Shown: positions 2,366 to 63,469, counted from the stretch's first letter. The stretch is 64,000 nucleotides of DNA from Nannocystis bainbridge (GCF_028368995.1 NZ_JAQNDL010000001.1:2176001-2240000), one strand, 5' to 3'. Translations and numbers: made by a program. The notes: generated by a model from the sequence alone, not told the origin.

Positions 2366-3871
2366 TCACCCCGACGCCCGCAGGCGCAGCGCCGCGGCTG
2401 CCTCCTCGCGGTCGTCGAAGTGCAGCTTGGTCGTCCCGACGACTTGATAGTCCTCGTGCCCCTTGCCCGCGATCACCACCACATCCTCGACGCCCGCCTC
2501 CGCGACCGCGCGGGCGATCGCCGCGCGGCGGTCGACCTCCGGCACCACCCGGTCGCGGCGGCTGGCCGGCACGCCGGCCAGCATCTGCGCCACGATCGCC
2601 GCCGGATCTTCCGTGCGCGGGTTGTCGGAGGTCGCGTAGAAGCGATCGGCCAGGGTCGCCGCGAACTCGCCCATCGGCGCCCGCTTGCCTGGATCGCGAT
2701 CGCCGCCGCAGCCCAGCACCACGAACAGCCGGCCGCTGCAGGCCCGCCGCACCGCTTGCAGCGCCCGCGCCACCGCGTCGGGCGTGTGCGCGTAGTCGAC
2801 GAGCACCGTCGGCCCGCGCGCGCCCGCCACCGTCACCCGCTCGAGCCGCCCCGGCGCCCCGCGGCACTCCGCCAGCGCCGCCGCGATCGCCGGCGGCTCC
2901 AGCCCCAGCCCCAGCCCCAGCCCGATCGCCACCAGCAGGTTGTCGAGGTTGAACGCCCCGACCAGCGGCGAGCGCAGCGCCAGCGGCCCCGCCGGCGTGT
3001 CCACGCGCGCCGTCAGACCTGTGCTTTCGGACATCACCGAAGACGCCACGATCTCCGCCCCCGGCAGCCCGCCGCGCGACGCTCGCCACACCTGCGACCC
3101 GGCCGGCGCCGCCGCCAAGAATTGCTGCGCCGCCGGCTGCTCGTCGACCGCCGCCACCACCACCCCGCCGGCCCGCAGGTGCTCTGCCGGCAGCAGGCAC
3201 TTGGCCGCCAGGTACTCGGCCATCGTCGCGTGGAAATCGAGGTGGTCCTGCGAGAAGCTGGTCAGCCCGGCCGCGTCGTAGCGCAGCGGCTTCGCCCGGC
3301 CCTGCGCCAGCGCGTGCGACGACACCTCCATCACCGCGTCGGTCGCCCCGCGCTCGCGCGCCCGCGCCAGCAGCTCCTGCAGCTCGAGCGGGAACGGCGT
3401 GGTGAAGGCCGCCGTCTCCTCGCGGTCGCCGACCCAGTTGCCCGTCGTACCGATCCGCGCGTGCTTGCGCCCCGCGGCCGCCAGCATCGCCGCGACCAGG
3501 AACGTCACCGTCGTCTTGCCGTTGGTCCCCGTCACGCCCGCCAGGCGCAGGTGCTCGCCGGGCTCGCCCCAGGCGCGCGCACACAGCCGCGGCAGCGCGT
3601 CGGCGATCGCCGGCAGCTCGACCCGCGGCTCCGGCTGCGGCGCCGCCAGCCGCCCGCGCTCGACGATCGCCAGCGCCGCGCCTGCCGCCAGCGCCGCCGG
3701 CACGAACGCGTGCCCGTCGTGTGCCAGCCCCGGCACCGCCACGAACGCCGCGCCGGGGACCACCCGCCGCGAATCGACGACCAGCCGCGCGACCGCCGTC
3801 TCCGGCCCGCAGCCGTGGTAGCTCGCGTCTTCACCGGCGAGCAGGGCGCCGAGGCGCAGCGTGTCGGACAT
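2366..3871 (-). CDS. murE: UDP-N-acetylmuramoyl-L-alanyl-D-glutamate--2,6-diaminopimelate ligase
   Basis: GVTGTNGKTT P-loop, MEVSSHAL, DYAHTPD, GCGGDRD, SDNPR (meso-DAP motif), IAGKGHE. Confidence 0.95.
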   Translation of the reverse strand: MSDTLRLGALLAGEDASYHGCGPETAVARLVVDSRRVVPGAAFVAVPGLAHDGHAFVPAALAAGAALAIVERGRLAAPQPEPRVELPAIADALPRLCARAWGEPGEHLRLAGVTGTNGKTTVTFLVAAMLAAAGRKHARIGTTGNWVGDREETAAFTTPFPLELQELLARARERGATDAVMEVSSHALAQGRAKPLRYDAAGLTSFSQDHLDFHATMAEYLAAKCLLPAEHLRAGGVVVAAVDEQPAAQQFLAAAPAGSQVWRASRGGLPGAEIVASSVMSESTGLTARVDTPAGPLALRSPLVGAFNLDNLLVAIGLGLGLGLEPPAIAAALAECRGAPGRLERVTVAGARGPTVLVDYAHTPDAVARALQAVRRACSGRLFVVLGCGGDRDPGKRAPMGEFAATLADRFYATSDNPRTEDPAAIVAQMLAGVPASRRDRVVPEVDRRAAIARAVAEAGVEDVVVIAGKGHEDYQVVGTTKLHFDDREEAAAALRLRASG

Positions 3872-3950
3872 CGCCCGCAGGCTAGCGCACCCGCGCCCGC
3901 CCGAACAGCACCCCTCCGCCCGCCCGCCCGAGCTTCCGGGGCGCCAGTCC

Positions 3951-4265
3951 TCGCCTGTCCCTTCAGTCAGCTCCTCGCAATGCCCGCTCGCCCGCCCGCC
4001 CGCAGATCCGGCCGCGCTCGCGGACATGCTCGATCGGACATGCCCCGGCGCCGCTGCTCGCCTGTCCTTCAGTCAGCTCCTCGCAGCGCGGCCGAGCGCG
4101 GGAGACGATGCCCAGCCGCGCTCGCACACATGCCCGGCGCCGGTTCTCGCCTGTCCCTTCAGTCGGCTCCTCGCAGCACGGCCGAGCGCGGGAGACGATG
4201 CCCGGCCGCGCTCGCGGACATGCCCGGCGCCGCGCCTCGCCTCGCCCTTCAATCAGCTCCTCGCA
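3951..4265. repeat. Imperfect tandem repeat (4 copies, about 90-107 bp) upstream of murE, carrying degenerate 14-bp palindromes
   Basis: TCGCCTGTCCCTTCAGTCAGCTCCTCGCA-like core at about 3951, 4058, 4147 and 4237. Confidence 0.8.
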
Positions 4266-4329
4266 ATGCCCACGATTCACCCCTCAACGGCCGAACGCGG
4301 GTGGCGAAACCCGGCCGCGCTCAAGGACA

Positions 4330-4436
4330 TGCCCGATCGGACATGCCCCAAGGGGCATGCCATCATGAACATGTCCCCCGCGCCATCTCCCCACATTCGA
4401 TCTCGCTGATTTTTAAAGGACATGTCCCGGAGGACA
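4330..4436. repeat. Phased arrays of the 14-bp palindrome (4 units at 4330-4385; perfect unit at 4423-4436)
   Basis: TGCCCGATCGGACA|TGCCCCAAGGGGCA|TGCCATCATGAACA|TGTCCCCCGCGCCA ... TGTCCCGGAGGACA. Confidence 0.85.
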
Positions 4437-7005: not shown

Positions 7006-7061
7006 TGTCCTTGCGGACACCTCGTCCGGGACATGTCCCGGAGGACATGTCCCGCGAGCCA
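7006..7061. repeat. Phased array of the 14-bp palindrome (4 units) just past the protease stop codon
   Basis: TGTCCTTGCGGACA|CCTCGTCCGGGACA|TGTCCCGGAGGACA|TGTCCCGCGAGCCA. Confidence 0.9.
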
Positions 7062-7065
7062 GCCC

Positions 7066-8478
7066 CTAGTTCGGCTTCTTGGCGTAGAACTTGTACGCCC
7101 CGGCGCCGCTGTACGACTGGATCAGCCACGTGTAGTGGCCCGCGGTCCCGTTGTACTTGACGGTCTCGTTGGTCGAGGCCGTCTCGGCCTTGGCGACCAC
7201 CGCCCACGCGCTGCCGTTCCACTTGTAGAGCAGCAGGTCGAAGTCGGTGCCGGCCGGCCCGACCAGGTAGCCCTCGTGCGCGCCCGCGCCGTTGCTCGTG
7301 TAGTAGCTGGCGTTCGGGTGCTGGTCGCTGTCGCCGCTGCCGGACAGCGAGCCGCTGTACTCGGTGCAGCCGGTGCACGGCACGTCCGCCGGCGGCGGCG
7401 GCGGCGGCGGCGGCGGATTGCCCCCGCCCTGGTACGGCGAGCCGCACGTCGCGCTGTACGCCCCGTTCGGCGCGCCCGCGTTGCAGCCGCCGCTCCACGT
7501 GTCGTTCACGCTGCCCGGATTGGTCTGGAAGTTGAAGCACTTGGGCCCCGGGTTCCAGGTGCCGTTGGCGTCGTGGCACGGCGTCAGATCGATCGCCGTC
7601 TGCTGCTCGAACCACGCGATGCCCTTGTGCATCATCGAGTACATGCCGCCGCTGCCGCACGCCCCGCCGTACGAGGTGATGCCGAACACGCGCCATGTCC
7701 CATCGGCCAGCTTGATGAACGCCGGCCCGCCGGAGTCGCCCTGACAGGTGTCCTTGCCGTTGCCGCCGATCGAGATCTCGTCGCCCTGGAACCCGTTGAT
7801 CGTCGTCGTCACCTGGCGCTTCACGCCGTAGGGCCCGTTGTCGGCGTTGCCGAAGCCGACCAGCGTGACCTGCTTGCCGGGCTGCAGGTTGCTCGTCTCG
7901 CAGCCCATCAAGATCGGCACGATCGGCACGTCGGTGACCGGCGTCGAAAGCTTGCACACCGCGAAGTCGTTGCCCGAGCCCGGCTGGCCGCCCGGATAGA
8001 TCTTGCACCACTGCGGCGTGACCGACTTGGCCGCCGCCGTGTACTTCTCGCCGAAGTAGATCTTGTTGTAGCTGGCGCCGCAGTGGGCGGCGTAGATGAC
8101 CACCTGCGGGTCGACCAGCGTGCCCGTGCACGAGCCGCCGAGCTCGACCGTCGACGCCCAGCCGCACACCGGCACCGTCGTGCCGCCGTAGATGGCCTCG
8201 CCGTCCTGCTCGTCCGCCGACGAGAATTCGTCGCTCGCCTCGTCGGCGCCCGGCGCCGGCGGTGGGTCGTCCACGCCCGCGAACAGCTCCGCGTGGCTGA
8301 GGATCTTCGGCTGGCCGGCGTCGGTGAAGTCGGCCTCGGCGACCGCGAGGTCGACGCTGTCGAGCTCGGCGTCGCTCTCGACCTCCGGATCGCATCCGCC
8401 CGCGATCAGCGCGAGCATGGAGAGCGGTGTGAGCAGTACGGTCGAGCGATGCTTCCGGGCAATGAGGCGATGCGTCAT
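7066..8478 (-). CDS. Trypsin-like (S1) serine protease lipoprotein with polyproline linker and C-terminal PPC-type domain
   Basis: IYGG mature N-terminus, AAHC, GNDFA, CQGDSGGP; GPAGTDFDLLLYKWNG PPC-like tail; IAGGC lipobox. Confidence 0.92.
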   Translation of the reverse strand: MTHRLIARKHRSTVLLTPLSMLALIAGGCDPEVESDAELDSVDLAVAEADFTDAGQPKILSHAELFAGVDDPPPAPGADEASDEFSSADEQDGEAIYGGTTVPVCGWASTVELGGSCTGTLVDPQVVIYAAHCGASYNKIYFGEKYTAAAKSVTPQWCKIYPGGQPGSGNDFAVCKLSTPVTDVPIVPILMGCETSNLQPGKQVTLVGFGNADNGPYGVKRQVTTTINGFQGDEISIGGNGKDTCQGDSGGPAFIKLADGTWRVFGITSYGGACGSGGMYSMMHKGIAWFEQQTAIDLTPCHDANGTWNPGPKCFNFQTNPGSVNDTWSGGCNAGAPNGAYSATCGSPYQGGGNPPPPPPPPPADVPCTGCTEYSGSLSGSGDSDQHPNASYYTSNGAGAHEGYLVGPAGTDFDLLLYKWNGSAWAVVAKAETASTNETVKYNGTAGHYTWLIQSYSGAGAYKFYAKKPN

Positions 8479-13829: not shown

Positions 13830-14779
13830 GACCGCCGCTCCCGGCCTCCACGCGCCCGCTCGACCGCCCCGCGATCGGGGTACGCCTGCTGCGACCCGTA
13901 GGCCGTCACCGCCAGGCTCGACACCGCCGCCGCGAACTTGACCGCCTGCAGCAGCTCCTGCCGCTCGAGCAGCGCCACCCCGAGCGCCCCCGCGAACGCG
14001 TCGCCCGCCCCCGTCTTGTCGACCACCGGCACCGCCAGCGGCCGCACGATCTCCTGCTGGTCCGCCGTCACCAGCGCCGTCCCGCCGGCGCGCAGCTTGA
14101 CGCACGCGACCGCGACCCCGCGGGCCAGCAGCTGCTCGCCGGCGCGAATCGCATCCTCGTCGGTCTGGACGTCGAGCCCGATGAGCCCGCGCGTCTCCTC
14201 GGGGTTGGGGGTGACGACATCGATCATGGCGTAGAGGTCGTCCTCCATGTTGCCGGCCGGCGACGGATCGAGCACCACCTTGAACCCTCGCTCACGCGCC
14301 GCTTTGGCGGCCGCGCGCACGACGTCGATCGGCACCTCGAGGTCGACGGTCAGCACCGAGCCCGCCGGCGCCGCCGCGATGACCTTCACCACCGCCTCGG
14401 CGTCGCCGGCCTGCCACGCCTCGTTGGCGTTCGCCGCCAGCAGGATGGTCTTGTCGCCGTCGTCGTCCCGCACCACGATCATCGCCAGCGCCGTCGCCTG
14501 CCCGGCGACCCGCTTCACGTGCGAGACGTCGACCCCGACCTCCCGCGGCCCGCGCAGCACCTCGTCGGCGAAATCGTCGTCCCCGACATGACCCAAAAGA
14601 CAGGCATTTACGCCGAGCCTCCGGCCCAGGAACGCGCGATTGGCCGCCTTGCCCCCGCCCGTGCGCAGCAGGTCGCGGACCGGCAACGTCTCGCCCGGCC
14701 CGGGCCAGCGGTCGGCGCGGACCTGCAGGTCGAGGTTGATGCTACCCAGCGCGAGCAACAGCGGTGAATCGTTCGTCAT
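13826..14779 (-). CDS. rbsK: Ribokinase / PfkB-family sugar kinase
   Basis: GSINLDL, GGKAAN, VGDDDF, VDKTGAGDAF. Confidence 0.85.
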   Translation of the reverse strand: MTNDSPLLLALGSINLDLQVRADRWPGPGETLPVRDLLRTGGGKAANRAFLGRRLGVNACLLGHVGDDDFADEVLRGPREVGVDVSHVKRVAGQATALAMIVVRDDDGDKTILLAANANEAWQAGDAEAVVKVIAAAPAGSVLTVDLEVPIDVVRAAAKAARERGFKVVLDPSPAGNMEDDLYAMIDVVTPNPEETRGLIGLDVQTDEDAIRAGEQLLARGVAVACVKLRAGGTALVTADQQEIVRPLAVPVVDKTGAGDAFAGALGVALLERQELLQAVKFAAAVSSLAVTAYGSQQAYPDRGAVERARGGRERRS

Positions 14780-29094: not shown

Positions 29095-29161
29095 CCTCGA
29101 GGACATGCCCCCTGAGGCATGTCCTAGGAACCATGTCCTATTGAGCATGTCCCGTGAGACA
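29092..29161. repeat. Phased array of the 14-bp palindrome (5 units) starting on the desaturase stop codon
   Basis: TGACCTCGAGGACA|TGCCCCCTGAGGCA|TGTCCTAGGAACCA|TGTCCTATTGAGCA|TGTCCCGTGAGACA. Confidence 0.9.
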
Positions 29162-29367
29162 TGGGATTCCTCGAGCTCGACCGAGGACGCGTCGACGCCC
29201 GGCCGGCATGTCACCTCGGGTCGTCCGGCGGCTTGCCTCGTGCGACCGCGCGGGCTCGACTGGCGTCACGTGGGCCGCAGCGCGGACGACTCATCGCTTC
29301 CCGGCCGGGTTCTACCGCGCCGCGCCTCGGCGGTCCGCCCGACCGGCCAGCGCTCAGCCTCGTGCTC

Positions 29368-38405: not shown

Positions 38406-38503
38406 TGCCCGCAGGGACATGCCCCGAAGGGCATGTCCCTCTCGACATGTCATCGAGGACATGTCTATGAGGGCATGTCCTCGATGACATGTCCTCAGCG
38501 ACC
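38406..38503. repeat. Longest phased array of the 14-bp palindrome (7 units), filling a convergent intergenic gap
   Basis: TGCCCGCAGGGACA|TGCCCCGAAGGGCA|TGTCCCTCTCGACA|TGTCATCGAGGACA|TGTCTATGAGGGCA|TGTCCTCGATGACA|TGTCCTCAGCGACC. Confidence 0.95.
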
Positions 38504-40242: not shown

Positions 40243-41214
40243 TCAGGCCGCGCGACGGACCAGGTGGACCACCGCGAAGCGGGCCGCGTCGTCGGTCCAC
40301 GCCTGGGTCAGCGTCAGACCTGCGCTGGAGGACATGTCCGAAAAGCCATCCAGCGTATACTTGTGCGACAGCTCGGTCAGGATCGACTCGCGGGCGCGGA
40401 AGCTGAAGCTGCGGCCGCCGACCCCGACGACCTGGTCGATCTTGCTGACCAGGTGCATCTCGATGCGGCTGGCGGCCTCGTTGAACACGGCGCGGTGGGC
40501 GAAGCGGCCCGGCTGGAACTCACCGCCGAGCTCGCTGTTGATGCGGTGGAGCAGGTTGAGGTTGAACGCCGCGGTCACCAGGTCGCGGTCGTTGTAGGCG
40601 GCCTCGAGCACCGACTTCGACTTGACCAGGTCGATGCCGACCAGCGCGCCCTCGCAGCCGGGCGCGCGGGCGATGTTTCGCAGCAGCGCGGTCGCCTCGC
40701 TCGGGTCGAAGTTGCCGATCGTCGAGCCCGGGAAGTACACCAGGCTGCGGCCGAGCGCCCCGACCGGCAGGGCGAACGGGCGCGTGAAGTCGGCGTGCAG
40801 CGGCAGCACCTTGAGCTTCGGGTACTCGGCCTGGATCGCCGCGCTGGCGGCCAGCAGCGGCTTCTCCGACACGTCGACCGGCACGTACGCGGTCGCGTCG
40901 AGGTGGTCGAGCAGCAGCCGGGTCTTGATGCTCTCGCCGCTGCCGTACTCGACGATGATCCGGCGCGGGCCGACGGCGGCCGCCATCTCCATCGCGTGGT
41001 CGCCGAGGATCTCGATCTCCGCGCGGGTCAGGTAGTACTCCGGGGTCTCGCAGATCGCCTCGAACAGGTGCGAGCCGCGGGCGTCGTAGAAATACTTGGA
41101 GGGCAGGCGCTTGACCGGGCGCGACAGCCCCTCGATCACGTCGGCGAGGAACCCGTCGGCTGGCGCCTGCGTCGCCTCGTCATCGCGCGGGCGTTGGTGG
41201 AGCGGTCGCATCAT
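40243..41214 (-). CDS. egtD: L-histidine N-alpha-methyltransferase
   Basis: KRLPSKYFYDARGSHLFEAICETPEYYLTRAE, VEYGSG, FPGSTIGNF, AAFNLNLL, TELSHKY. Confidence 0.95.
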   Translation of the reverse strand: MMRPLHQRPRDDEATQAPADGFLADVIEGLSRPVKRLPSKYFYDARGSHLFEAICETPEYYLTRAEIEILGDHAMEMAAAVGPRRIIVEYGSGESIKTRLLLDHLDATAYVPVDVSEKPLLAASAAIQAEYPKLKVLPLHADFTRPFALPVGALGRSLVYFPGSTIGNFDPSEATALLRNIARAPGCEGALVGIDLVKSKSVLEAAYNDRDLVTAAFNLNLLHRINSELGGEFQPGRFAHRAVFNEAASRIEMHLVSKIDQVVGVGGRSFSFRARESILTELSHKYTLDGFSDMSSSAGLTLTQAWTDDAARFAVVHLVRRAA

Positions 41215-42449
41215 GCATCCTTGGTGAGACGGATCCCCGTGAACGGCCACCGCGCCCGGGGCGGAAAGAAATTGCGGTAGCTGGCACGCAAATGATCCCG
41301 CGGGGAAGCGCACGAACCGCCGCGCAGCACCATCTGGTTCGACATGAACTTGCCGTTGTATTCGCCGAGCGCGCCCGCCGGCGGGTGATAGCCGGGGTAC
41401 GGCAAGTACGCGCTCGCGGTCCACTCCCACACGTCGCCGAACAGCTGCGCCGGCCGGGGCTCGGCCTGCGGCGGCGCGTCCGCGACGGTCGGGTGGAGGC
41501 GGCCCGAATCGACGAAGTTACCGGCCACCGGCGCGCCCTCGGCCGCCGCTTCCCACTCGAACTCGGTCGGCAGGCGGGCGCCGGCCCAGCGGGCGAACGC
41601 GTCGGCCTCGTAGTGCGACACGTGGACCACCGGCGCGTGCGGGTCGAGCGGGCGCGGCCCGCCGAGCGTCATCTGCCACCATGTCCCCTGGGACATGTAC
41701 CAGTAGAGCGGCGCCGTCCAGCCCTCGGCCTGCGCCTGGGCCCAGCCGTCGGCCAGCCACAGCGTGCTGCGGCGGTAGCCGCCGTCGGCCACGAACTCCG
41801 CGTACTCCGCGTTGGTCACGCAGCGCGACGCCAGCGCGTGCGGCCGCAGCAGCGTCTGGTGGCGCGGGCCCTCGTTGTCGAAATGAAAGCCCGCGCCGGC
41901 GTTGCCCACCTCGCGCAACCCGCTCGGCCCCGGGCACCAGCGCAGCGGCGCCGCCGGTCGCGACGACGGCGGCGCCGCCTCCGCCCGCAGCCCCGGCCGC
42001 AGCGGGTTCTGGGCGTACAGGTGCAGCAGGTCCATCAGGATCAGCTCCTGGTGCTGCTGCTCGTGCTCGAGCCCGAGGCGGACCCGCTCGACCAGCCACG
42101 CCGGCCCGCCGCGGGCCAGCAGCTCGAGCATCGCCGCGTCGACGTGGGTCCGGTACTGCAGCACCTCGGCCCCGGTCGGCCGCGTCAGCAGCCCGCGGCG
42201 CGGCCGGCTGAACTGCGGGCCCACCGACTCGTAATACGAGTTGAAGAGGACCTCGAACTGCGGGTGAAACGGGCGGTAGCCGGGGTCGGCCGGGCCGAGC
42301 ACGAACGTCTCGAAGAACCACGTCGTGTGCGCCAGGTGCCACTTGGCCGGGCTCGCGTCCGGCATGCTCTGGACCGCGAGGTCCTCCGCGGGCAGCCCCG
42401 CGACCAGCCCCTCCGTGGCCGCGCGCACCCGGGCGTAGGCCGCCTCCAC
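41211..42449 (-). CDS. egtB: Ergothioneine sulfoxide synthase
   Basis: QSMPDASPAKWHLAHTTWFFE, HEQQHQEL, RLPTEFEWE, GEYNGKFM. Confidence 0.95.
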   Translation of the reverse strand: MEAAYARVRAATEGLVAGLPAEDLAVQSMPDASPAKWHLAHTTWFFETFVLGPADPGYRPFHPQFEVLFNSYYESVGPQFSRPRRGLLTRPTGAEVLQYRTHVDAAMLELLARGGPAWLVERVRLGLEHEQQHQELILMDLLHLYAQNPLRPGLRAEAAPPSSRPAAPLRWCPGPSGLREVGNAGAGFHFDNEGPRHQTLLRPHALASRCVTNAEYAEFVADGGYRRSTLWLADGWAQAQAEGWTAPLYWYMSQGTWWQMTLGGPRPLDPHAPVVHVSHYEADAFARWAGARLPTEFEWEAAAEGAPVAGNFVDSGRLHPTVADAPPQAEPRPAQLFGDVWEWTASAYLPYPGYHPPAGALGEYNGKFMSNQMVLRGGSCASPRDHLRASYRNFFPPRARWPFTGIRLTKDA

Positions 42450-43427
42450 TCAGAACCTCCCGCCGAGCGCGACCCCGAAGCCCTGGCCCGAAGGACCTGC
42501 CCCCAGGTGCAGCTGACCGCGGCGGGCCGTCTTGCCCACGCCGGTGTCCTGCCGCTCGAGCGTCTTCAGCTCGGCGCGCGACGACAGGGCGTCGACCGCC
42601 ATGAACGCCGAGCCGGCCAGCCCGAGCCCGCCCGCCAGGCTGGTGACGCCGACGAAGCGCAGCGGCTCCTTGTCGCCGTACTGACCGATCAGCCACAGCG
42701 CGCTGAACACCGCCGCCCCGGCGTAGAGGGCGTAGCCGAGCCCGCGGGCCCACAGCTTGCCGCGCACGCGCAGGTCCCGGCCGGTGCTGGCGCCGCCGAT
42801 GGCGACGATCGGCGTGCCGAGCAGCGTCGTCGTCAGGCCGAGGCTGGCGTACATGAAGTGCTTCATGCCGTAGTCGCTCGGGTCGGTCTTGCCGGCGCGA
42901 CCGGCGTCGTAGAGCACGCCCATCAGCATGCCGACCGCCGAGAAGCCGACGCCGACGCCGGCGCCGACGCGGGCCCACTCCGACGGCGTCGACTCGCGGC
43001 CCTCGACGCACTCCCACGAGTTCTCGTGCACCGCCGTCACCGCCCCCAGCGGAGCCTGCTGCGCGCCGTTCTTCGGGTGCACGTAGTAGACCGCCGACTT
43101 GTCGGCGCGGGTCAGCGTCACGCACTCGCGCCCCGCGGTGCCGAGGATCACCAGCACCCGCCGCCCGGCCAGCCGCTGCCACTGCGCGTCGCTCACCGGC
43201 GCGGGGTAATAGCGCGGCATGTTGTCCGCGGCGGCCGGCGCCTCCGCGGCGGTCGCGTCACCGGCGACCGCGTGGTGGATCAGCGTGACATGACCTTCGG
43301 GCAAGGTCCGATCGGACATGTCCGAAGCGCCATCCACGATCACCGCCTCGGGCCCCTCGTAGCTGCGCAGGCCGGCGGGCGGGGTGAGGGCGAGCGACAC
43401 GACGGCGAGCGCGGCGAGCATGGCCAC
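42450..43427 (-). CDS. Exported/membrane hypothetical protein
   Basis: Signal peptide, several hydrophobic helices, C-terminal GVALGGRF. Confidence 0.65.
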   Translation of the reverse strand: MAMLAALAVVSLALTPPAGLRSYEGPEAVIVDGASDMSDRTLPEGHVTLIHHAVAGDATAAEAPAAADNMPRYYPAPVSDAQWQRLAGRRVLVILGTAGRECVTLTRADKSAVYYVHPKNGAQQAPLGAVTAVHENSWECVEGRESTPSEWARVGAGVGVGFSAVGMLMGVLYDAGRAGKTDPSDYGMKHFMYASLGLTTTLLGTPIVAIGGASTGRDLRVRGKLWARGLGYALYAGAAVFSALWLIGQYGDKEPLRFVGVTSLAGGLGLAGSAFMAVDALSSRAELKTLERQDTGVGKTARRGQLHLGAGPSGQGFGVALGGRF

Positions 43428-45026: not shown

Positions 45027-45054
45027 TGTCTTACGGGACATGTCCGATCGGACC
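45027..45054. repeat. Two in-phase 14-bp palindromes in the murF/HNH divergent region
   Basis: TGTCTTACGGGACA|TGTCCGATCGGACC. Confidence 0.8.
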
Positions 45055-45730: not shown

Positions 45731-45948
45731 TGTCCCGAGGGACAGGTCGCACCGGCCGGGCCCGGCGAACGCGGCGGCCGTCTCGGCGCAGGCCCGCCGC
45801 GCCTGCGCGCGGACCATTCACCGCATCCTGTCCCGAAGGCCAGGTCGCCGGCCGGGCCCGGCGAACGCGGTGCCCTCTCGGCGCAGGCCCGCCGCGCCCG
45901 CGTGCGCCGGGGCCATCCTCCACATCCTGTCCCGAAGGCCAGGTCGCT
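45731..45948. repeat. Tandem repeat of about 98 bp (2 copies plus a partial third), each starting with the 14-bp palindrome
   Basis: TGTCCCGAGGGACA 45731; TGTCCCGAAGGCCA 45829 and 45928. Confidence 0.85.
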
Positions 45949-50123: not shown

Positions 50124-52829
50124 ATGACCGCGCGCGCACCCACGACCCTCGGTGAACCCGACGACCTCGTGCTCGAGCCGTCCGCCCGGGCCCTGCTCAG
50201 CGCCCTCGTGCGCGAGCTCGACGGCTGGACGAGCGAGCGCGCGCCCGGCCGCGAGTGGCTGCGCCTGGCCATGCCGGTCCAGGGCGGCGCGATCGAGGTC
50301 CCGCTGGCGCGGCCGTTCGGCGTCGGCCGGATCGCCGGCGGTCAGGCCCGCTGGCGCGACGCCGCCGGCGCCAGCGAGCCGCTGCCGCTCGCCCGCCTGG
50401 TCGCCCGCCTGGTCGAAGAGCCAGCCGTCGCCGCCGCGCTCGGCCTGTCCTCCGGGCCAGGTCTCGATCGCTTCGTCGCCCGCGTGCGCGCCAGCGCGGC
50501 CAACCTCGAGGCCACCGTCAGCGCGCGCGCGGCCGACCTCGACGTCCTGTTCAGCGAGCCGCTCGGCTTCATCGCCGCCGAGCAGGGCCTGCTGCTCGGC
50601 CACTCGGTCCACCCGGCCCCGCGCCTGCGCGAGGGGCTCGGCGACGGCGACGACGACCTCGTGCCCGAGCTGCGCGGGCGCACGCCGCTGTGCGTGTGGG
50701 CGGTCCGGCGCGAGCGGCTGCTCCACGGCGGCGACGAGGCACCATCCCTGCTGGCGCGCCTGGTCGCCAGCGACCCGGCGTGGGCGGCCCAGGCCGACAC
50801 CGTCGGGCCCGAGTTCGTGCTGCTGCCGCTGCACCCGCTGCAGCACCGCGCGCTGCTCGACGATCCCTCGCTCGAAGCCGGTCGCCGGCGCGGCGAGCTC
50901 GTCCCGCTCGGTCCGCTCGGCGGCGCGTGGTCGGTGACCTCGTCGCTGCGCACGCTGCACCGCGACGGCGCGCCGTTCATGCTCAAGCAGTCGCTGCCGG
51001 TGCGGCTCACCAACTCGCGCCGGACCCTGTCGCTGGCCGAGCTCGACCGCGGCCTGCTGCTCGGGCGCGTGCTCGGCGACACCGACGCCCCGCTGCCGCT
51101 TCACCCCGACTTCCACATCCTGCGCGAGCCGGCGTGGTTCGGCCTGCGCGACGATCAGAATCAACCTGGCCCTTCGGTCAGCTTCTTCGCCCTGCGCGAC
51201 AACCCGTTCCGCGAAGGCCAACCGGCCGAGATGCTGGCGACCCTGCTGCAGGACGATCCCCGCAGCGGCCGCAGCCGCCTCGCCGTCCGCCTCGAGCGGG
51301 CCGCCGCGCGCCTCGGCGTGCGCCCGATCGCCCTCGCCGAGGCGTGGTTCGTCCGCTTCCTCGCCGTCGCGTTCGCGCCGATCGTCGCCGCCCAGGCCGA
51401 GCTCGGCCTACTGCTCAGCGCCCACCAGCAGAACCTGGTGATCGGCTTCGCCGACGACGGCCTCACCCCGGCGCGCGCGTGGTTCCGCGACGCCCAGGGC
51501 ACCGCGTACACCGAGCTCGCGCTGCGCCGCCACGGCGAGCGCGTGCCCGGGCTCGAGCGGGCGGTGTTCCGCGCGCCGCTGGCCGAGCGCGTGTGGGCCT
51601 ACTCCGTCGTCATCAACGGCGTGTTCAACACCGTCGCCTCGCTGGCGATGATCCCCGGCCTCGACCAGGGCCTGCTGCTCGAGCACCTGCGCGCTTGCCT
51701 GCAGGGGCTGCGCGCCGCGGCGCCCGCCGACCCGCGCGCGATCGACTACCTGCTGCGCTCGCCCGAGCTGTGGACCAAGGCCAATGCGCGCTGCTTCGCC
51801 GGCGGCGTCGACGAGGTCTCGCTCGCCGACCCGCTCACGATCTACCGCCCGATCGCAAACCCGCTGCACCGCGCGCCCGTCGACTCGCCCGCGCCGACCT
51901 CCGGCCGCGCCGCCGATCTCGACGGCGACGTCCAGGTCGAGCTCACCCAGCTCGCGCCGTCGCGGTTCACCGGCCACGTCGACGGCGCCCGGCCCTTCAC
52001 GCTCGACCTCGCCGACGATCACGCGACGATCGCGTGGGAACAGTTCGACCCACGCGCGCGCGACCTGGTGAGCGACCGCCTGTTCACCGGCCGCCTCGGC
52101 CTGCGCCACCTCGCGCATGTCCACGCGGAAGGGCGGGAGATCGTCGCCCGCGAGGCGTTTTATCAGCGCCCGCTGTGGCACCACCGCGGCGAATCACTGC
52201 CGGCGACCACGCCGCTCGTGCAGACCGGCGCGATCGTCCATCCCCTGCGCCAGGACGACGGCGAGTCCCTGCTCTACCGCCGCCACTGCGCCGCCATCGA
52301 TCGCACCTTCAGCCTGCGGCGCTTCGATCTGTCGCGCGACCTCGACCTGTTCTGCGCCTGGATGAACGACCCGGTGGTCGCGAAATTCTGGGAGCAGGCC
52401 TGGCCGCGCGCGCAGCTGCTCGACTACATCGAGCAGCGGCAGGCCGACCCGCACACGATCCCCGCGATCGGCTGGTTCGACGAGCGGCCGGTCGCCTACT
52501 ACGAGATCTACTGGGCCAAGGAGGACCGCCTCGGCCCGCACTACGCGGCCGACGACTTCGACCGCGGGTTCCACATGGCGATCGGCGACCCCGAGGTGCG
52601 TCACCGCGGCTGGGGTCGGCAGTGGTTCCTCTCGATGGCGCACTACCTGTTCCTCGACGACCCGCGGACGCAGCGGCTGGTCGGCGAGCCGCGCGTCGAT
52701 CAGGCCCGCGTGCGCAACTGGGCCAACTCCACCCCGTGGGAGGAGTGGGGCGAGGTCCACTTCCCGCACAAGACCGCCGTGCTGATGGTGCTCTCCCGCG
52801 AGCGCTTCTTCGCCACCTTCGAGGGCTGA
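50124..52829 (+). CDS. iucA: IucA/IucC-family NIS synthetase fused to a C-terminal IucB/AlcB-type N-acyltransferase
   Basis: EQGLLLGHSVHP, LHPLQ, TSSLRT, LTNSRR, AHQQN, FRDAQG; then WMNDP.V..FW, EIYWAKED, DRGFH, LDDPRT..VGEP, FPHK. Confidence 0.9.
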   Translation: MTARAPTTLGEPDDLVLEPSARALLSALVRELDGWTSERAPGREWLRLAMPVQGGAIEVPLARPFGVGRIAGGQARWRDAAGASEPLPLARLVARLVEEPAVAAALGLSSGPGLDRFVARVRASAANLEATVSARAADLDVLFSEPLGFIAAEQGLLLGHSVHPAPRLREGLGDGDDDLVPELRGRTPLCVWAVRRERLLHGGDEAPSLLARLVASDPAWAAQADTVGPEFVLLPLHPLQHRALLDDPSLEAGRRRGELVPLGPLGGAWSVTSSLRTLHRDGAPFMLKQSLPVRLTNSRRTLSLAELDRGLLLGRVLGDTDAPLPLHPDFHILREPAWFGLRDDQNQPGPSVSFFALRDNPFREGQPAEMLATLLQDDPRSGRSRLAVRLERAAARLGVRPIALAEAWFVRFLAVAFAPIVAAQAELGLLLSAHQQNLVIGFADDGLTPARAWFRDAQGTAYTELALRRHGERVPGLERAVFRAPLAERVWAYSVVINGVFNTVASLAMIPGLDQGLLLEHLRACLQGLRAAAPADPRAIDYLLRSPELWTKANARCFAGGVDEVSLADPLTIYRPIANPLHRAPVDSPAPTSGRAADLDGDVQVELTQLAPSRFTGHVDGARPFTLDLADDHATIAWEQFDPRARDLVSDRLFTGRLGLRHLAHVHAEGREIVAREAFYQRPLWHHRGESLPATTPLVQTGAIVHPLRQDDGESLLYRRHCAAIDRTFSLRRFDLSRDLDLFCAWMNDPVVAKFWEQAWPRAQLLDYIEQRQADPHTIPAIGWFDERPVAYYEIYWAKEDRLGPHYAADDFDRGFHMAIGDPEVRHRGWGRQWFLSMAHYLFLDDPRTQRLVGEPRVDQARVRNWANSTPWEEWGEVHFPHKTAVLMVLSRERFFATFEG

Positions 52830-52833: not shown

Positions 52834-54600
52834 GTGAACCCCGGCGAGACCTCCGAGTGGCAGGACCACGCCCGCCTGGCCGGCCGGCGCCGGCTGGCGC
52901 AGGCGATCGGCGAGCTCAGCTTCGAGGGGCTGCTGCACCCGCGTCCGCTCGGCGACGACCGCTGGGCGCTCGATCTGTCCGATGGGACATGTTATTCGTT
53001 CACAGGGCGGCCGAGCGCGTGGGGCGGGCTGCACGTCGAGGCCGACGGCATCACCCGCCGCGAAGGCGACGGCGACGAGCAACCGGCCGCCTCGCCGGTG
53101 CAGCTGATCCTCGACGCCCGGGCCGCGCTCGGGGTCGGCGCCGACGCGCTGGCCGAGTTCCTCGAGGAGCTCCACAACAGCCTGCTGGCCGAGACGGAGC
53201 AGTGCGCGCGCCTGGCCGAGCTGCGCGCGCCGCAGCTGGCCGCGCTGTCGGGCGCCGCGCTCGAGCAGCACCTCGACGGCCACCCCAAGCTGGTGGCGCA
53301 CCGCGGCCGCGTCGGCTGGGGCGTCGCCGATCTCGCAGCCTACGCGCCCGAGTCCGCCAGCCGCGTGCAGCTGCACTGGCTCGTCGTCGCGCCCGAGCTG
53401 GCCCGCTGCAGCGGCGCCGCCGGTCCGGGCCAGCTGCAGTTGGTCGACGAGAGCTGCGACGCCGAGGCCCGGGCCCGCCTGCTCGAGCAGCTGCACGCGC
53501 GCGCCCCCGGGCTCGCGCGCGGCGGCGTGCTGGTGCCGGTGCACCCGTGGCAATGGCAGCACCACCTGGCCGCCCAGTATATCGACGCGCTGACGCGCGG
53601 CGCGATCGTCTCGCTCGGCCGCTTCGGCGACGCCTACGCGCCGCGCCTCTCGATCCGCACCCTCGCCGACGCTTCGCGACCCGAGCGCGCCGACGTCAAG
53701 CTGGCGCTGACGATCCTCAACACCTCGTGCTGGCGCGGCCTGCCCGGCGAGCACATCGAGCAGGGCGTCGGCATCGGCGCGGCGCTGCGGCGGCGCGTCG
53801 CCGGCGATCCTCTGCTGCACGGCGTGCACGTGCTCGCCGACCTCGGCGGCGTGCACGTGCCGCAGCCCGAGTTCGAGGCCCTCGGCGCCGCGCCCTACCG
53901 CCTGCGCGAGCAGCTGGGGGCGCTGTGGCGCGAGAGCGCGACGGCTCGCCTCGGCGCCGACGAGCGCGAGGTCGCGGCCGCGGCGCTGCAGCAGACCGAC
54001 CTCCGCGGCGAGCCGCTGCTGCGCACATGGGTCGAGCAGAGCGGCGCCTCGATCACGGCGTGGTTGACCGCGCTGTTCGAGCGCACCGCGGCGCCGCTCT
54101 ATCACTTGCTGTGCCGCCACGGCATCGGCGTGATCGCCCACGGGCAGAACCTCGGGCTGGTGCTGCGCGCGGGAATGCCGACGGCGATCCTGCTGCGCGA
54201 CGTGCACGGCGACGTGCGCCGGGTGGCCGACGACCGCTTCGATCACGAGCCGGCGCTGCGCGGGCTCAAGGCGCTGCCGGCCGGCCAGATCGTGCACGAC
54301 CTCTACACCGGCTATTTCGTCAGCGTGCTGCGGTTCGTCGCGCCGCTGTGCGAGCGCAGCTTCGGCCTGCCGGAGCGCGAGTTCCTGCGGCTGCTGTCCG
54401 CGGTGCTCGCCGCCTACTGTGATTCGGTGCCGCACGAGGCGACGGCGCGCTTCGATCTGTTCCGTCCGGAGATGGAGCGGATCTGCCTCAACCGCGCCCG
54501 TCTGCGGATCGGCCACGGCGGCGGCGCCACGCGCCCGCTGCCCGCGCTCGGTCCGCCGCTGCATAACCCGTTGGTGAGGGAGGTGGACGATGAACGATGA
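52834..54600 (+). CDS. iucC: IucA/IucC-family NIS synthetase (IucC-like)
   Basis: GHPKLVAHRGRVGW, VHPWQW, SIRT, LNTS, HGQN. Confidence 0.9.
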   Translation: MNPGETSEWQDHARLAGRRRLAQAIGELSFEGLLHPRPLGDDRWALDLSDGTCYSFTGRPSAWGGLHVEADGITRREGDGDEQPAASPVQLILDARAALGVGADALAEFLEELHNSLLAETEQCARLAELRAPQLAALSGAALEQHLDGHPKLVAHRGRVGWGVADLAAYAPESASRVQLHWLVVAPELARCSGAAGPGQLQLVDESCDAEARARLLEQLHARAPGLARGGVLVPVHPWQWQHHLAAQYIDALTRGAIVSLGRFGDAYAPRLSIRTLADASRPERADVKLALTILNTSCWRGLPGEHIEQGVGIGAALRRRVAGDPLLHGVHVLADLGGVHVPQPEFEALGAAPYRLREQLGALWRESATARLGADEREVAAAALQQTDLRGEPLLRTWVEQSGASITAWLTALFERTAAPLYHLLCRHGIGVIAHGQNLGLVLRAGMPTAILLRDVHGDVRRVADDRFDHEPALRGLKALPAGQIVHDLYTGYFVSVLRFVAPLCERSFGLPEREFLRLLSAVLAAYCDSVPHEATARFDLFRPEMERICLNRARLRIGHGGGATRPLPALGPPLHNPLVREVDDER

Positions 54601-59161: not shown

Positions 59162-60712
59162 GTGACCGCCGACCACACGTCCCCCTCCGACCCCGCCGAC
59201 GCGAGAGCCCCCTCCGCGTCGGCGGCCGCCGTTTCGCCCCCGACGTCCGCGAGCGGCCTCGACCCGACCGCTTCGACCCCAGCGATCCGAAGCGCCGCGG
59301 GCTCGCCGGGTGACCCCGATCCGTCCGCCTCGTCGGCCCCGCCCGAACTCGATTTCGCCCGCACCACCGCCCTCGTCATCGGCGCCGGCGCCAGCGGCCG
59401 GGCCGCCGCCGAGCTGCTGGTGTTCCTCGGCGCTCGCGTCCGCCTCTACGACCAGAACCCTGACGCCACCGTGCCCGCCGGCGTCGAGCCGGTCCTCGGC
59501 GCCGCCGAATTGCCCGCCGAGGCCTTCGCCGGGCTCGGCCTCATGATCCTGAGCCCCGGCGTCCCGCCCGCCCGCTTCCGCGACGCCCAGCGACGCTGGG
59601 CCCCGCAGGCCCGGGTCCACGGCGAGATGAGCCTGAGCCTGGCGATCGCCGCGGCCCGCTTCGGCCGCCTGCCGACCGTCCTCATCACCGGCACCAACGG
59701 CAAGAGCACCGTCACCGCCCTCACCGGCGCCCTGCTCGAGGCCGGCGGCCTGAAGCCGTTCGTCGGCGGCAACCTCGGCGTCCCGCTGGCCGCCGCCCTG
59801 CTGGGCCTCCTGCGCGCCCGCGCCCCCGCGCCCGACGCCCTCGTGCTCGAGTGCTCGAGCTTCCAGCTCGAGACCCTCGAGCACGCCGCCACCGACGTGG
59901 CGATGGTCCTCAACATCACCCCCGACCACCTCGACCGCTACCCCGGCCTCGACGACTACGCCGCCACCAAGGCGCGCGTGTTCACCGGCCTGGGCCCGGA
60001 CGGCCTGGCCCTGCTCGACGCCGGCGACGGCTTCACGTCGTTCCTGCGCGCCCGCGTCGGCGCCGGCCGGCTCGTGCTCGTCGACGACCCCGACGGCGCG
60101 CGCCTCCTCGGACCTGGCCCCGGGGACAGCCTCGTCCTCCCGGACGGCGAGACCTTCGCCCGCCGGGCCCTGCCGATCCCCGGCCGCCACAACAGCAAGA
60201 ACGCCCTGTTCGCCCTGCTCGCCGCCCGCCGGCTCGGCGTCGACCACGACGCCTGCGTGCGCGGCCTGGAGGGCTTCCACGGCCTGCCGCACCGCATGAC
60301 CTTCGTCCGCGAGCGCGCCGGCGTCCGCTTCTACGACGACTCCAAGGCGACCAACGTCGCCAGCGTGCTCGCCAGCCTCGACGGCTTCGACCGCCCGGTC
60401 GTCCTCATCGCCGGCGGCCGGGCCAAGGGCGACGATCTCACGCCCCTGCGCGCCCTGCTGGGCCGCAGCGGCCGCGCCCTGGTCGCCATCGGCGAGTCGG
60501 CCGACGCCTTTTACCCCCTCGCCGACGGCCTCGTGCCGGCGCGCCGGGCGAACTCCATGGCCGAGGCCGTCGAGCTCGCGGCCGCGCTCGCCGGCCCGGG
60601 CGACGCCGTGGTCCTCTCGCCGGCGTGTGCCAGCTACGACTGGTTCAAGAATTACGGCGAACGCGGCGACACCTTCGCCCGCCTGGTGCGGGCGCTGCCT
60701 GCGGAGAAGTGA
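59162..60712 (+). CDS. murD: UDP-N-acetylmuramoyl-L-alanine--D-glutamate ligase
   Basis: SPGVP, ITGTNGKSTVT, ECSSFQLE, DHLDRY, DDSKATN, LSPACASYD. Confidence 0.96.
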   Translation: MTADHTSPSDPADARAPSASAAAVSPPTSASGLDPTASTPAIRSAAGSPGDPDPSASSAPPELDFARTTALVIGAGASGRAAAELLVFLGARVRLYDQNPDATVPAGVEPVLGAAELPAEAFAGLGLMILSPGVPPARFRDAQRRWAPQARVHGEMSLSLAIAAARFGRLPTVLITGTNGKSTVTALTGALLEAGGLKPFVGGNLGVPLAAALLGLLRARAPAPDALVLECSSFQLETLEHAATDVAMVLNITPDHLDRYPGLDDYAATKARVFTGLGPDGLALLDAGDGFTSFLRARVGAGRLVLVDDPDGARLLGPGPGDSLVLPDGETFARRALPIPGRHNSKNALFALLAARRLGVDHDACVRGLEGFHGLPHRMTFVRERAGVRFYDDSKATNVASVLASLDGFDRPVVLIAGGRAKGDDLTPLRALLGRSGRALVAIGESADAFYPLADGLVPARRANSMAEAVELAAALAGPGDAVVLSPACASYDWFKNYGERGDTFARLVRALPAEK

Positions 60713-61582: not shown

Positions 61583-61704
61583 CACCGCTGTCACATTCGC
61601 GGTGGCAGAGGTCGGTATTTTAAGTTCGCGCCATCGTCGAGGGCGGGCGCGTCGCCCGGACACATGCCCGAGACGGCCGGCGAACCGACCGCCGCGGGGT
61701 TTCA

Positions 61705-61821
61705 TTAAGTCAGCGCAAGCAGCTTCTTCTGCAGCCTGCGGACCGAGCGCGGCGCCGTCATCAGGTAGTACACGCCGGTCAGCACGTAGAGGGGCAGCTT
61801 GGAAGCATTGGGGGGGGTCAT
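61705..61821 (-). CDS. Putative 38-aa small membrane-associated protein
   Basis: GGAG RBS; MTPPNASKLPLYVLTGVYYLMTAPRSVRRLQKKLLALT; mostly GC3 codons. Confidence 0.4.
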   Translation of the reverse strand: MTPPNASKLPLYVLTGVYYLMTAPRSVRRLQKKLLALT

Positions 61822-62056
61822 GGCACGTTCTCCGCGATAAGGTCTGCGTCTTTGTAGCGGCGGGGGGCCGCGTGTCGGATCACTCGATGTCCGACACCGT
61901 TTCGATCTCGCACATCTCGGTGCTCTCTTGCAGATCACGCACCGAGATGGCGATCCGACCTCTGCGAAACGCATCGCATTCCTGTGAGATTCCGTCGCGA
62001 CAATTTGTCCGCCCGCGGTGACGGACGGCGCCGCTGGCGGCCAATTTATCTGGCTG

Positions 62057-63469
62057 TCAGGACATGCTCGGAGAGACAGGTACTCGCGGGCGCCCGGGGA
62101 ACATCGCTTCGACCTCGCGCGCGACCGCCAGCACCCGATCCTCGCGGCCGAGCGGGCCGACCAGCTGGACCGCGATCGGCAGGCCCTCGCGGGAGCTCGC
62201 CACCGGCAGCGCCACCGCCGGCTGACCGGTGACGTTGAACGGCGCCGTGAACGCCCCGTAGACCGCGTAGGCGCGGAACACCGCCTCGCCGTCGGGTCCG
62301 CGCCACGCCCCGATCGGCGGCGGAGGTCCCACCACTGCGGGCGTCAGCACCAACTCGGCGTCACCGACCCACGCCAGCACCCGCTCGCGCAGCGCCTCGA
62401 ACGCCGCGTGGGCCAGCGCCGGCGAGTTGCGGCGACCGGCCTCGACGAGCCAGCGCGTCGCCGGCTGCAGCCGGTCCGCCCGCACCCACGGCACCTCGGA
62501 CAGGAGGCGCTGGTAGATCGGCAAGAAATCGTCGACCGACCCCCGCGCCATCTCGACCTCCTCGACGCGGTGGCCCGCGCCGGCGAGCGCCTCGCCGACG
62601 GACCGCGTCGCCGCGGCCCACTCTGGCGCGGCGGCGGCCAGCGGCGAGTCGACCGCCAGCTTGATCCGCAGGCGCGGCGACGGCTCCAGCATCTGTCCGT
62701 AAGGACATGGCGGAGGGGACAGCCAGTGCGGCCGCCCGACGGTGAGCCCGGCCATCACGTCGAGCAGCGCCGTCGCGTCGGCGACCGAGCGCGCCAGCGG
62801 CCCGCAGGTGTAGAGCAGCGTGCGGTCGTCGCGACCGAACGCGTTGGCGACCCGCCCGCGCGACGGCTTGAGGCCGACGAGGCCGCAGAACGCGGAGGGG
62901 ATCCGGATCGAGCCGGCGCCGTCGCTGCCCTGGGCCCACGGCAGCAGGCCAGCGGCGACCGCCGCGCCCGAGCCCCCGCTCGAGCCGCCGGCCGTGCGCG
63001 CCGGGTCCCACGGGTTGCGCGTCGGCGGGTGCGTGTCAGGCTCCGTCACCGGCAGCGCCCCGAGCTCCGACGTCGCCAGCTTGCCGAGCACCACGAGGCC
63101 CGCCGCGCGCAGCTTGGCCACCGTCGCGTCGTCGATCGGCGAGTACAGCGGCAGCACCCCGCGCGAGCCCATGCGGGTCCGCGAGCCGCGGACGAAATTG
63201 AGGTCCTTGACGCCGATCGGCACCCCGAGCAGGGGCGGGACCGAGTCGAGCGCGCCGCGCCGCGCCGCGCGGTCGAGCGCATCGTCGGCGGCCCGGGCCG
63301 CTCGCCGCGCCCGCGCGTCGAACACCGACACGAAGGCCGACAGCGCGGGGTTGTGCGCGGCGATACGGTCCAGGTACAGCGCGACGAGCTCCTGGCTGCG
63401 GATCTCGCGGCGCCGCAACAGGCGCGCCTGTTCCAGGCCAGACACGTGGAGGAGCTCGGCGAGCGACAT
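62057..63469 (-). CDS. Amidase-signature family amidase
   Basis: GVPIGVKD, TRNPW, GGSSGGSG, GSDGAGSIRIP, GLKPSRG. Confidence 0.95.
   Translation of the reverse strand: MSLAELLHVSGLEQARLLRRREIRSQELVALYLDRIAAHNPALSAFVSVFDARARRAARAADDALDRAARRGALDSVPPLLGVPIGVKDLNFVRGSRTRMGSRGVLPLYSPIDDATVAKLRAAGLVVLGKLATSELGALPVTEPDTHPPTRNPWDPARTAGGSSGGSGAAVAAGLLPWAQGSDGAGSIRIPSAFCGLVGLKPSRGRVANAFGRDDRTLLYTCGPLARSVADATALLDVMAGLTVGRPHWLSPPPCPYGQMLEPSPRLRIKLAVDSPLAAAAPEWAAATRSVGEALAGAGHRVEEVEMARGSVDDFLPIYQRLLSEVPWVRADRLQPATRWLVEAGRRNSPALAHAAFEALRERVLAWVGDAELVLTPAVVGPPPPIGAWRGPDGEAVFRAYAVYGAFTAPFNVTGQPAVALPVASSREGLPIAVQLVGPLGREDRVLAVAREVEAMFPGRPRVPVSPSMS

Follow-up and report, generated by a model that had tools for sequence, protein, structure and literature searches.

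The DNA analysed here, called the window, is a stretch of 64,000 nucleotides (nt) from Nannocystis bainbridge (GCF_028368995.1 NZ_JAQNDL010000001.1:2176001-2240000), whose genome (G000) was available as an 11.05-Mb assembly of 5 contigs with 71.5% G+C. The original prediction, made from the window's sequence, had described a 14-bp motif written with rare codons into conserved genes. The word at the sites it cited is TGTCC-N4-GGACA, a 14-letter 5-4-5 interrupted palindrome. Exact and one-mismatch copies of this word inside genes are real, whereas two-mismatch copies, taken as a class, are no more frequent than chance predicts. Once a copy has formed, its ten specified bases are maintained at the level of the DNA sequence, the spacer bases change neutrally, and the word is specific to the genus within the genomes searched.

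Motif copies in the genes of the window

Units in the window were scored against TGTCC-N4-GGACA and gene families were assigned with Pfam, which agreed with the gene names given earlier by returning Mur ligases, a PfkB kinase, EgtD, EgtB, IucA/IucC, a Lys/Orn monooxygenase, a metallo-beta-lactamase and an amidase. Exact units lie at 41682..41695 in egtB (codons ATG TCC CAG GGG ACA), at 52976..52989 in iucC (codons CTG TCC GAT GGG ACA TGT) and within 62694..62721 in the amidase gene, where an in-phase two-mismatch unit follows at 62708. One-mismatch units were found at 1644..1657 in a predicted gene with no Pfam family (1339-2247, +), at 3020..3033 in a Mur ligase gene (2366-3871, -; codons ATG TCC GAA AGC ACA), at 7696..7709 in a trypsin-like protease gene (7066-8418, -), at 31504..31517, which is 10 nt within the 3' end of a predicted gene (31494-31931, -), at 50446..50459 in an IucA/IucC-GNAT gene (50124-52829, +), and at 60115..60128 in a Mur-ligase-family gene (59162-60712, +). 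A further one-mismatch unit is joined by a two-mismatch unit at 43305..43332, about 100 nt within the called 5' end of gene 42450-43421 (-); as the start call of this gene is uncertain, both units may be intergenic. A decayed unit with two mismatches, but only one in the relatives G005, G007 and G001, occupies 14589..14602 of the PfkB kinase gene (rare codons TGT CTT TTG GGT CAT), and two in-phase two-mismatch units with a common GGACATGTCC junction span 40321..40348 of egtD, the second starting at 40335.

Among the sites cited originally, those at 41682, 52976 and 62694 are exact copies and that at 3020 has one mismatch. Those with two mismatches are backed by the relatives at 14589, by the junction at 40321/40335 and by phase at 62708, and are ambiguous at 55017 (iucD) and 61073 (metallo-beta-lactamase). 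The murF site at 44106-44133 is not a copy, its units showing three (44106) and four (44120) mismatches when counted by eye. Several of the cited examples are weak because two-mismatch matches occur at chance level.

Build, abundance and distribution of the word

Allowing up to two mismatches, 84 matches were counted in the window, compared with 24.9 ± 5.0 (maximum 38) in 100 dinucleotide shuffles. The exact word occurs 1987 times in G000, and about 6000 copies are present when up to one mismatch is counted. The same arms at N0, N2, N3, N5 and N6 gave 6, 8, 16, 5 and 3 copies, respectively (range 2-16 over N2-N8), the swapped arms at N4 gave 13 copies genome-wide, and no other 5-bp stem in G000 had a spacing-specific excess of comparable size. 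A weaker flank consensus extends the word to C-M-TGTCC-N4-GGACA-K-G, and information is uneven across its positions, G2 and C13 being nearly invariant and T3 and A12 the most variable. No adjacent half-unit accompanies 1145 of the 1987 exact units. Head-to-tail arrays are evident from CATG-to-CATG distances: those of 14, 28 and 42 bp were counted 3736, 2065 and 1458 times, respectively, where the background is about 70-300. The sequence GGACATGTCC was considered as the basic unit and rejected: only 33 of 956 such junctions lack both flanking arms (at least three mismatches each), and the arm symmetry spans N4, not CATG.

Genes were called crudely from open reading frames (ORFs) and codon-usage log-odds, which yielded 7833 genes covering 82% of G000. 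With these calls, 729 exact copies (37%) lie wholly in genes, 1243 lie outside and 15 straddle a boundary. The 729 coding copies compare with 21.5 ± 4.8 in eight whole-genome shuffles of synonymous codons within genes, a 34-fold excess that bears out the claim that the constraint is on nucleic acid; one-mismatch coding copies were 4.2-fold in excess (1688 versus 397 ± 15) and two-mismatch matches showed no excess (3958 versus 4520 ± 36). The shuffle is conservative because the peptides encoded by the motif are retained. For the 45 complete predicted genes of the window, 500 synonymous shuffles gave expectations of 0.034 exact copies (3 observed) and 2.36 one-mismatch copies (7 observed), and no shuffle reached the observed total of both; the 19 two-mismatch matches were reached in 407 of the 500, with 22.0 expected. 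Two-mismatch matches were rejected as a class of real sites, having neither an excess nor a stem-loop contrast in conservation.

The reading frame of 588 of the 729 exact copies is strongly supported, both flanks having a third-position G+C of at least 0.85 that peaks in the annotated frame. T1 occupies codon position 3 in 413 copies, position 2 in 253 and position 1 in 63, in agreement with the statement that different frames are used; the accompanying statement about strands has no meaning for a palindrome. Coding copies are evenly distributed along gene length, with no 3'-end enrichment. A or T is the last base of 26.3% of the codons under the exact coding copies and of 4.3% of those in long ORFs genome-wide, and codons with a synonym share below 10% make up 27.4% and 4.1%; the shares of codons occurring in the word are 1.8% for ACA, 1.7% for GGA, 2.7% for CCT, 7.9% for TGT and 0.8% for CTT. 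The rare AT-ending codons noted earlier are present, although largely because the motif's own letters dictate them. Genes rich in copies encode long disordered proteins rich in Pro, Ala, Asp and Ser, and G000:C3:712627-717846 (-) and five other genes of this kind hold 6-12 exact copies each. In one such protein, copies 42 nt apart encode a 14-residue peptide repeat (..PVLADSPADASPEA..), so that the DNA word shapes peptide repeats.

The sites form 4059 clusters, and 544 of the 550 20-kb bins hold at least one site, leaving six with none. The median cluster spacing of 1.7 kb is in line with the predicted site every 1-3 kb, and spacing is over-dispersed (coefficient of variation, CV, 1.18). Regular spacing, or the filling of gaps by coding copies, was rejected on account of this CV; the median distance from an exact coding copy to the nearest intergenic site was 1839 bp, compared with 1815 ± 92 bp for random coding positions. 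Low-GC bins are site-poor, with 3.8 sites per 20 kb at a GC of 0.66-0.69 versus 12.6 at 0.71-0.73, GC being used here as a proxy for foreign DNA.

Conservation of existing copies

A region of 584 kb around the window was aligned to the close relatives G005, G001 and G003 (aligned fractions 0.525, 0.525 and 0.208; identities 91.1%, 90.6% and 88.5%, respectively), and changes were compared with a codon-matched expectation. In coding sites with at most one mismatch, 13 stem third positions had changed in G005 where 76.0 were expected (P = 5e-19), 14 in G001 where 75.5 were expected, and 7 in G003 where 30.9 were expected, P values that overstate the evidence because the three relatives share ancestry. 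For exact coding sites, the observed and expected changes in the three relatives were 2/19.7, 1/20.2 and 0/5.8 at stem third positions and 7/8.1, 8/8.6 and 1/1.8, which is near neutral, at spacer third positions. Stem third positions therefore change 5- to 20-fold less than the same codons elsewhere, as had been predicted for synonymous rates inside sites, and rare codons such as ACA, which are replaced at 0.52-0.54 elsewhere, are kept inside the word. Exact coding sites that could be aligned were also exact in G005 in 12 of 17 cases, and within about 270 kb of aligned coding sequence no exact site stood opposite three or more mismatches in a relative. Faster evolution of the loop was considered on the basis of raw third-position rates (0.39-0.42 versus 0.14) and rejected, since the difference vanishes against the codon-matched expectation. 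Coding copies are more strongly conserved than intergenic ones.

Origin of the coding copies

The coding copies form 2267 chains, of which 1861 are single, 353 double, 40 triple and 13 longer, so that multiples of three units are not favoured; a lone 14-nt unit is not an in-frame insertion because 14 nt breaks the frame. To follow their origin, 113 orthologue-like pairs were drawn from distant genomes of the genus (42,900 codons, 68% identity), and six sites were checked by hand. Nine exact sites in the pairs were not shared: five were ungapped, three had a gap at most three codons away and one had a 6-nt gap inside, and none was a 14- or 42-nt insertion. Compared with a background residue identity of 0.685, exact sites reached 0.381 and one-mismatch sites 0.460, and coding copies also sit in disordered linkers; site formation often alters amino acids, and synonymous codon choice is not the sole route to a site.

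One gain among the pairs, in murF of G008, required two synonymous substitutions and an I/L replacement relative to G000. The egtD codon alignment is indel-free, with DMSSS in G000 opposite ELAAA in G006 and GLAAA in G002, and in the amidase CPYGQM in G000 stands opposite ASFAEL (G006) and IPYAEA (G002), six consecutive residues differing with the motif ungapped. The Mur ligase site at 3020 lies in a variable loop and carries the motif in 8 of 8 same-genus orthologues aligned and in neither G011 nor G012. The egtB site shows a two-codon length difference to G002 and G006 and a one-residue difference to solved EgtB homologues, G-T-W being common to both, and the loop at the iucC site is one residue longer than in solved IucC. 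In a variable linker of egtB, G006 (L014, G006:C226, ~3150-3230) has an array of 3-4 units that is an in-frame insertion of about nine residues, G002 (L008, G002:C148, 3133-3173) has two units, and G000 has none.

From these alignments, the coding copies in the small sample examined appear to have formed in place by substitutions, both synonymous and non-synonymous, at tolerant residues. Nearby indels of one or two codons seem to accompany some of them, with no element-sized insertion in the cases examined. The predicted gain by substitution rather than insertion holds for single coding units in orthologue alignments. The related statement that the sites are not inserted mobile elements likewise stands for single coding units, but not for the intergenic arrays, which vary by duplication and indels, or for the egtB array of G006. 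Substitution is also the part retained of the proposal of point mutation under positive selection: the data do not separate selection from drive (biased uptake, biased repair) as the keeper of the word.

Arrays at gene ends

Most copies are tandem 14-bp arrays directly behind genes. Exact copies number 1.43 per kb in intergenic regions between convergent genes, 0.60 in those between tandem genes, 0.21 in divergent ones and 0.081 within coding sequence; 52% of convergent intergenic regions hold a site, and in tandem regions copies peak 0-20 nt past the upstream stop. The same gene ends have kept arrays in five genomes, with units and lengths differing between them, and intergenic lengths vary among close species (e.g., 107 versus 63-69 bp and 315 versus 69-236 bp). 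Neighbouring units share the same loop in 65 cases (15.5 ± 4.0 expected) and a reverse-complement loop in 26 (14.4 expected), and the loops of more than 90% of neighbouring pairs differ. The excess of shared loops implies that arrays grow partly through local duplication.

Within the window, an intergenic tandem array of 14-bp period lies at 2279..2348 between convergent genes. The region containing it, 2248-2365, measures 118 bp in G000 and 1126-1444 bp in four close relatives, whose longer counterparts contain an additional conserved segment and far more copies of the unit. Units at 4330..4436 stand directly behind the stop of gene 4449-5402 (-), as does an array at 7006..7061 behind that of gene 7066-8418 (-), which is also present in G005, G007 and G001. 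Two arrays at 29092..29395 lie in a convergent intergenic region, where all four close relatives also have arrays, of differing units and lengths; another, at 34534..34617, begins at the stop codon of gene 33909-34541 (+), and a seven-unit array lies at 38406..38503 between convergent genes. The two units at 45027..45054 occupy a divergent, promoter-side intergenic region and are conserved in four relatives. Dispersed units occur in a 64-bp tandem repeat at 37364..37787 in a long intergenic region, and units stand at the head of every copy of a 99-bp tandem repeat at 45731..45941 behind gene 45203-45727 (+). Intergenic tandem repeats with 53-99-bp units were recorded at 4038-4265, 35131-35320, 37497-37727, 45731-45947, 48756-49011 and 57715-57867, those at 37497-37727 and 45731-45947 containing one or two copies of the 14-bp word in each repeat unit.

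Structural features of the units were also examined. Single variants on the sense strand behind genes are of the G.U type in 236 cases and of the C.A type in 210 (z ~1.2), TTCG and CGAA loops occur 24 times each, UUCG and GNRA loops are not favoured, and the sense strand has no T-run behind the unit. Double variants depart little from independence, and it is the specific letters, not pairing, that are conserved. An extended hairpin was rejected, since neither the loops nor the outer flanks show added complementarity. No Rfam family matched at the motif, the single Rfam match in the whole window lying elsewhere. Searches of G000 (90.5% complete) gave no match to the Y1/RAYT (repetitive extragenic palindrome-associated tyrosine) transposase family PF01797, which matched 6 of 14 control genomes; Vsr was likewise not found, and a ComEC-type channel gene is present.

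Three other features of the window were noted. A stretch of about 3 kb (23490-26560) has a G+C of 0.66-0.68 in 4-kb bins, no called gene and almost no motif, and is possibly of foreign origin or a non-coding locus. The adjacent 879-amino-acid predicted gene at 20850-23489 (-) contains tandem repeats of 12, 15, 27, 36, 60 and 93-102 nt at 20877-21267, and its product looks like a repetitive low-complexity protein. A Guanidine-III riboswitch (RF01763) was found at 38866-38929 (-), with 64.2 bits against a gathering threshold of 36, upstream of gene 38511-38849 (-).

Occurrence in other genomes

A 19-letter form of the word was present in 10 of 10 same-genus genomes, in 0 of 2 genomes from other genera of the family and in 0 of 8 from other families; a reversed control word had no match in any genome searched for this form. 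The double unit was then sought across 185,579 species genomes and matched 49 stretches, comprising 32 in Nannocystis, 14 in Mesorhizobium and three singletons. The Mesorhizobium matches are a fixed, perfect 44-bp palindrome, CCCCCCTCTGTCCTGCCGGACA followed by TGTCCGGCAGGACAGAGGGGGG, which contains the double unit by coincidence. This palindrome (14 loci, L110-L156) has differing flanks, occurs twice in L141 and is conserved among species; it looks like a separate repeat of Mesorhizobium resembling repetitive extragenic palindromes (REPs). As it differs from the Nannocystis word, these matches provide no lead to a reader. Viral contigs held no match to the word. A literature search on the motif letters and on repeats or palindromes of myxobacteria and Nannocystis gave no description among the matches listed, subscription journals lying outside its coverage.

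Comparison with known systems

The nearest known cases are HIP1 and the uptake sequences in proteomes and, for the gene-end arrays, TRIT and REP. HIP1 (GCGATCGC) is a cyanobacterial palindrome, abundant within a clade, present in and between genes, with a reader and function long unknown, and its retention at orthologous places is the reason for regarding it as selected (PMC5861425). The Nannocystis word shares two features with it, being over-represented relative to composition and codon usage and conserved at orthologous places, but is interrupted (5-4-5), reaches a 7- to 8-fold higher density outside genes than within them and has over-dispersed spacing. HIP1 is reportedly an uninterrupted 8-mer containing methylase sites, and to our knowledge has not been reported as phased tandem arrays behind genes. 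Uptake signal sequences (USS, of Pasteurellaceae) and DNA uptake sequences (DUS, of Neisseriaceae) are described as asymmetric words in coding excess that use several frames, favouring those with preferred codons, lie at poorly conserved residues and in poorly conserved genes, accumulate after a gene has arrived and alter peptides (PMC2817400). The Nannocystis word resembles them in its thousands of copies, in the poorly conserved residues of its coding copies and in its lower number in low-GC (proxy) bins, and differs in being palindromic and built from rare codons. DUS dialects are genus-specific.

The TRIT elements of Mycobacterium are genus-restricted, palindromic, mostly bidirectional, conserved in sequence and located at gene ends, with 147 copies in M. 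tuberculosis centred at about -8 from the stop codon, and the authors suspected a dedicated factor (PMC3152330). The Nannocystis copies peak 0-20 nt after stops, number thousands, form 14-bp arrays and include hundreds conserved deep inside genes. REPs are summarised as extragenic sequences of 20-40 bp with a GTAG or CGTC tag (PMC3733652). Like REPs and bacterial interspersed mosaic elements, the Nannocystis units are short palindromes that cluster behind genes as well as between convergent ones; unlike REP/RAYT systems, the unit is 14 bp, over a third of exact copies are coding, the flank consensus is just C-M / K-G, and no Y1 transposase was found. Intrinsic (Rho-independent) terminators, which are orientation-specific G+C-rich hairpins ahead of a U-tract, differ as well, the Nannocystis units having neither a T-run nor a G.U/C.A asymmetry. 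Short palindromic protein-binding words are tolerated inside genes in matS, in the SlmA-binding sites (SBS) and in the Noc-binding sites (NBS), which comprise tens to about 100 sites that are restricted to, or missing from, a single part of the chromosome. The likeness to these three proposed originally does not hold, given 4059 clusters in nearly all bins, the CV of 1.18 and no gap-filling.

Interpretation

It is reasonably probable that TGTCC-N4-GGACA is a genus-specific palindromic word that arises by substitution in genes and is kept up at the nucleotide level through a putative reader of duplex DNA. Under this explanation a factor of two-fold symmetry would read the word on duplex DNA, candidate types being a nucleoid or boundary protein, a DNA-uptake receptor, and a modification or repair enzyme. 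The reader would favour word-bearing alleles chromosome-wide, via selection for many sites or via drive, and copies would build up where they are cheapest, in gene ends more than promoter regions and in promoter regions more than coding sequence; at gene ends the word would multiply into 14-bp tandem arrays by local duplication. The gene-end placement fits a gene-end function and, equally well, accumulation where the word costs least. A bolder version, in which a genus-wide DNA-word system has a dedicated, two-fold-symmetric reader whose nucleotide-level selection or drive overwrites protein and forces rare codons at about 2000 coding positions, the phased 14-bp arrays serving as factor-dependent bidirectional gene-end boundaries, is tentative and would be a good deal less probable.

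Several observations weigh against the duplex-reader explanation. The DNA-level reader protein is putative. The three close relatives are not independent of each other, and the gene calls are self-made and crude (ORFs and codon usage). Intergenic stems are just mildly conserved where alignable (0.089 versus 0.148 in G005), and 31 of 48 exact intergenic sites fail to align to relatives. The array at 38400-38510 folds as RNA at -72.5 kcal/mol (z -8.8), and this stability, together with the 0-20 nt post-stop peak, is compatible with an RNA or terminator role. Non-consensus arms are complementary in 11.9% of cases where 6.7% are expected (mutual information 0.306 versus 0.223 ± 0.008), a covariation that a simple homodimer site does not predict and with which a hairpin or cruciform is compatible; template switching at quasi-palindromes is a possible source of weak arm covariation. 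The origin sample is small, four of its nine non-shared sites have indels in or near the motif, and some copies may have arisen by patch-wise replacement.

An RNA-level gene-end signal, i.e., a terminator hairpin or an element stabilising 3' ends, as in TRIT or REP, with the coding copies as spill-over, would account for the highest density and 52% occupancy in convergent regions, the post-stop peak, the persistence of gene-end arrays in five genomes despite unit turnover, the array fold and the weak arm covariation, and TRIT is likewise genus-restricted, palindromic and placed at gene ends. This alternative is nevertheless unlikely, since G.U- and C.A-type variants are nearly balanced, neither UUCG nor GNRA loops are preferred, no T-run follows the units, letters rather than pairing are conserved with double variants near independence, no Rfam family matches, and the coding copies are spread evenly along genes and conserved more than the intergenic ones. 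A DNA uptake sequence, preferred by a competence receptor and spread by recombination as a molecular drive, would be one form of the duplex-reader explanation and is a little less likely again. The multi-frame coding excess, the poorly conserved residues and the scarcity in likely foreign DNA form a USS/DUS-like signature, and the genus-specificity resembles that of DUS dialects. The ComEC-type channel gene is uninformative because 10 of the 14 control genomes also match, and none of the uptake sequences known is an interrupted palindrome arranged in 14-bp tandem arrays, all being asymmetric words.

Insertion of a small mobile or self-copying element, REP/RAYT-like or resembling a miniature inverted-repeat transposable element, is improbable. 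It would explain the tandem arrays, the intergenic length differences between close species, the loops shared by adjacent units, the in-frame array of 3-4 units in the egtB linker of G006 and the 42-nt-spaced copies in disordered proteins. It is at odds with a 14-nt unit that breaks the frame and yet stands singly in 1861 of 2267 coding chains, with triples not favoured, with the lack of element-sized insertions at all nine non-shared sites, with the difference between more than 90% of neighbouring loops, with the empty search for a Y1/RAYT gene in G000 and with the absence of matches in viral contigs. Chance production from the codon usage and amino-acid content of a genome with 72% G+C describes only the two-mismatch matches, which do not exceed the shuffles genome-wide or in the window and lack a stem-loop contrast. 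For the exact and one-mismatch classes it is refuted by their 34-fold and 4.2-fold excess, by the 100-fold rarity of other spacings and by the use of codons with synonym shares of 1-8%, and as a general explanation it has next to no probability.

If the word is maintained through a duplex reader, it would add a fresh myxobacterial case to USS/DUS, HIP1 and Chi, in which genomes are shaped by DNA readers besides proteins, and it would do so in large-genome, 72% G+C producers of natural products. Its build is unusual in combining an interrupted palindrome, phased arrays and a gene-end bias, and the price that proteins pay, namely rare codons and substituted residues, can be measured. In annotation, clusters of rare codons at these sites should not be read as evidence of foreign DNA or of faulty sequencing. 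The word is a concrete bait for discovery of the reader, and it may matter for genetic tools in the hard-to-manipulate Nannocystis, including transformation efficiency, terminators and the design of synthetic genes in which the word is either retained or avoided.

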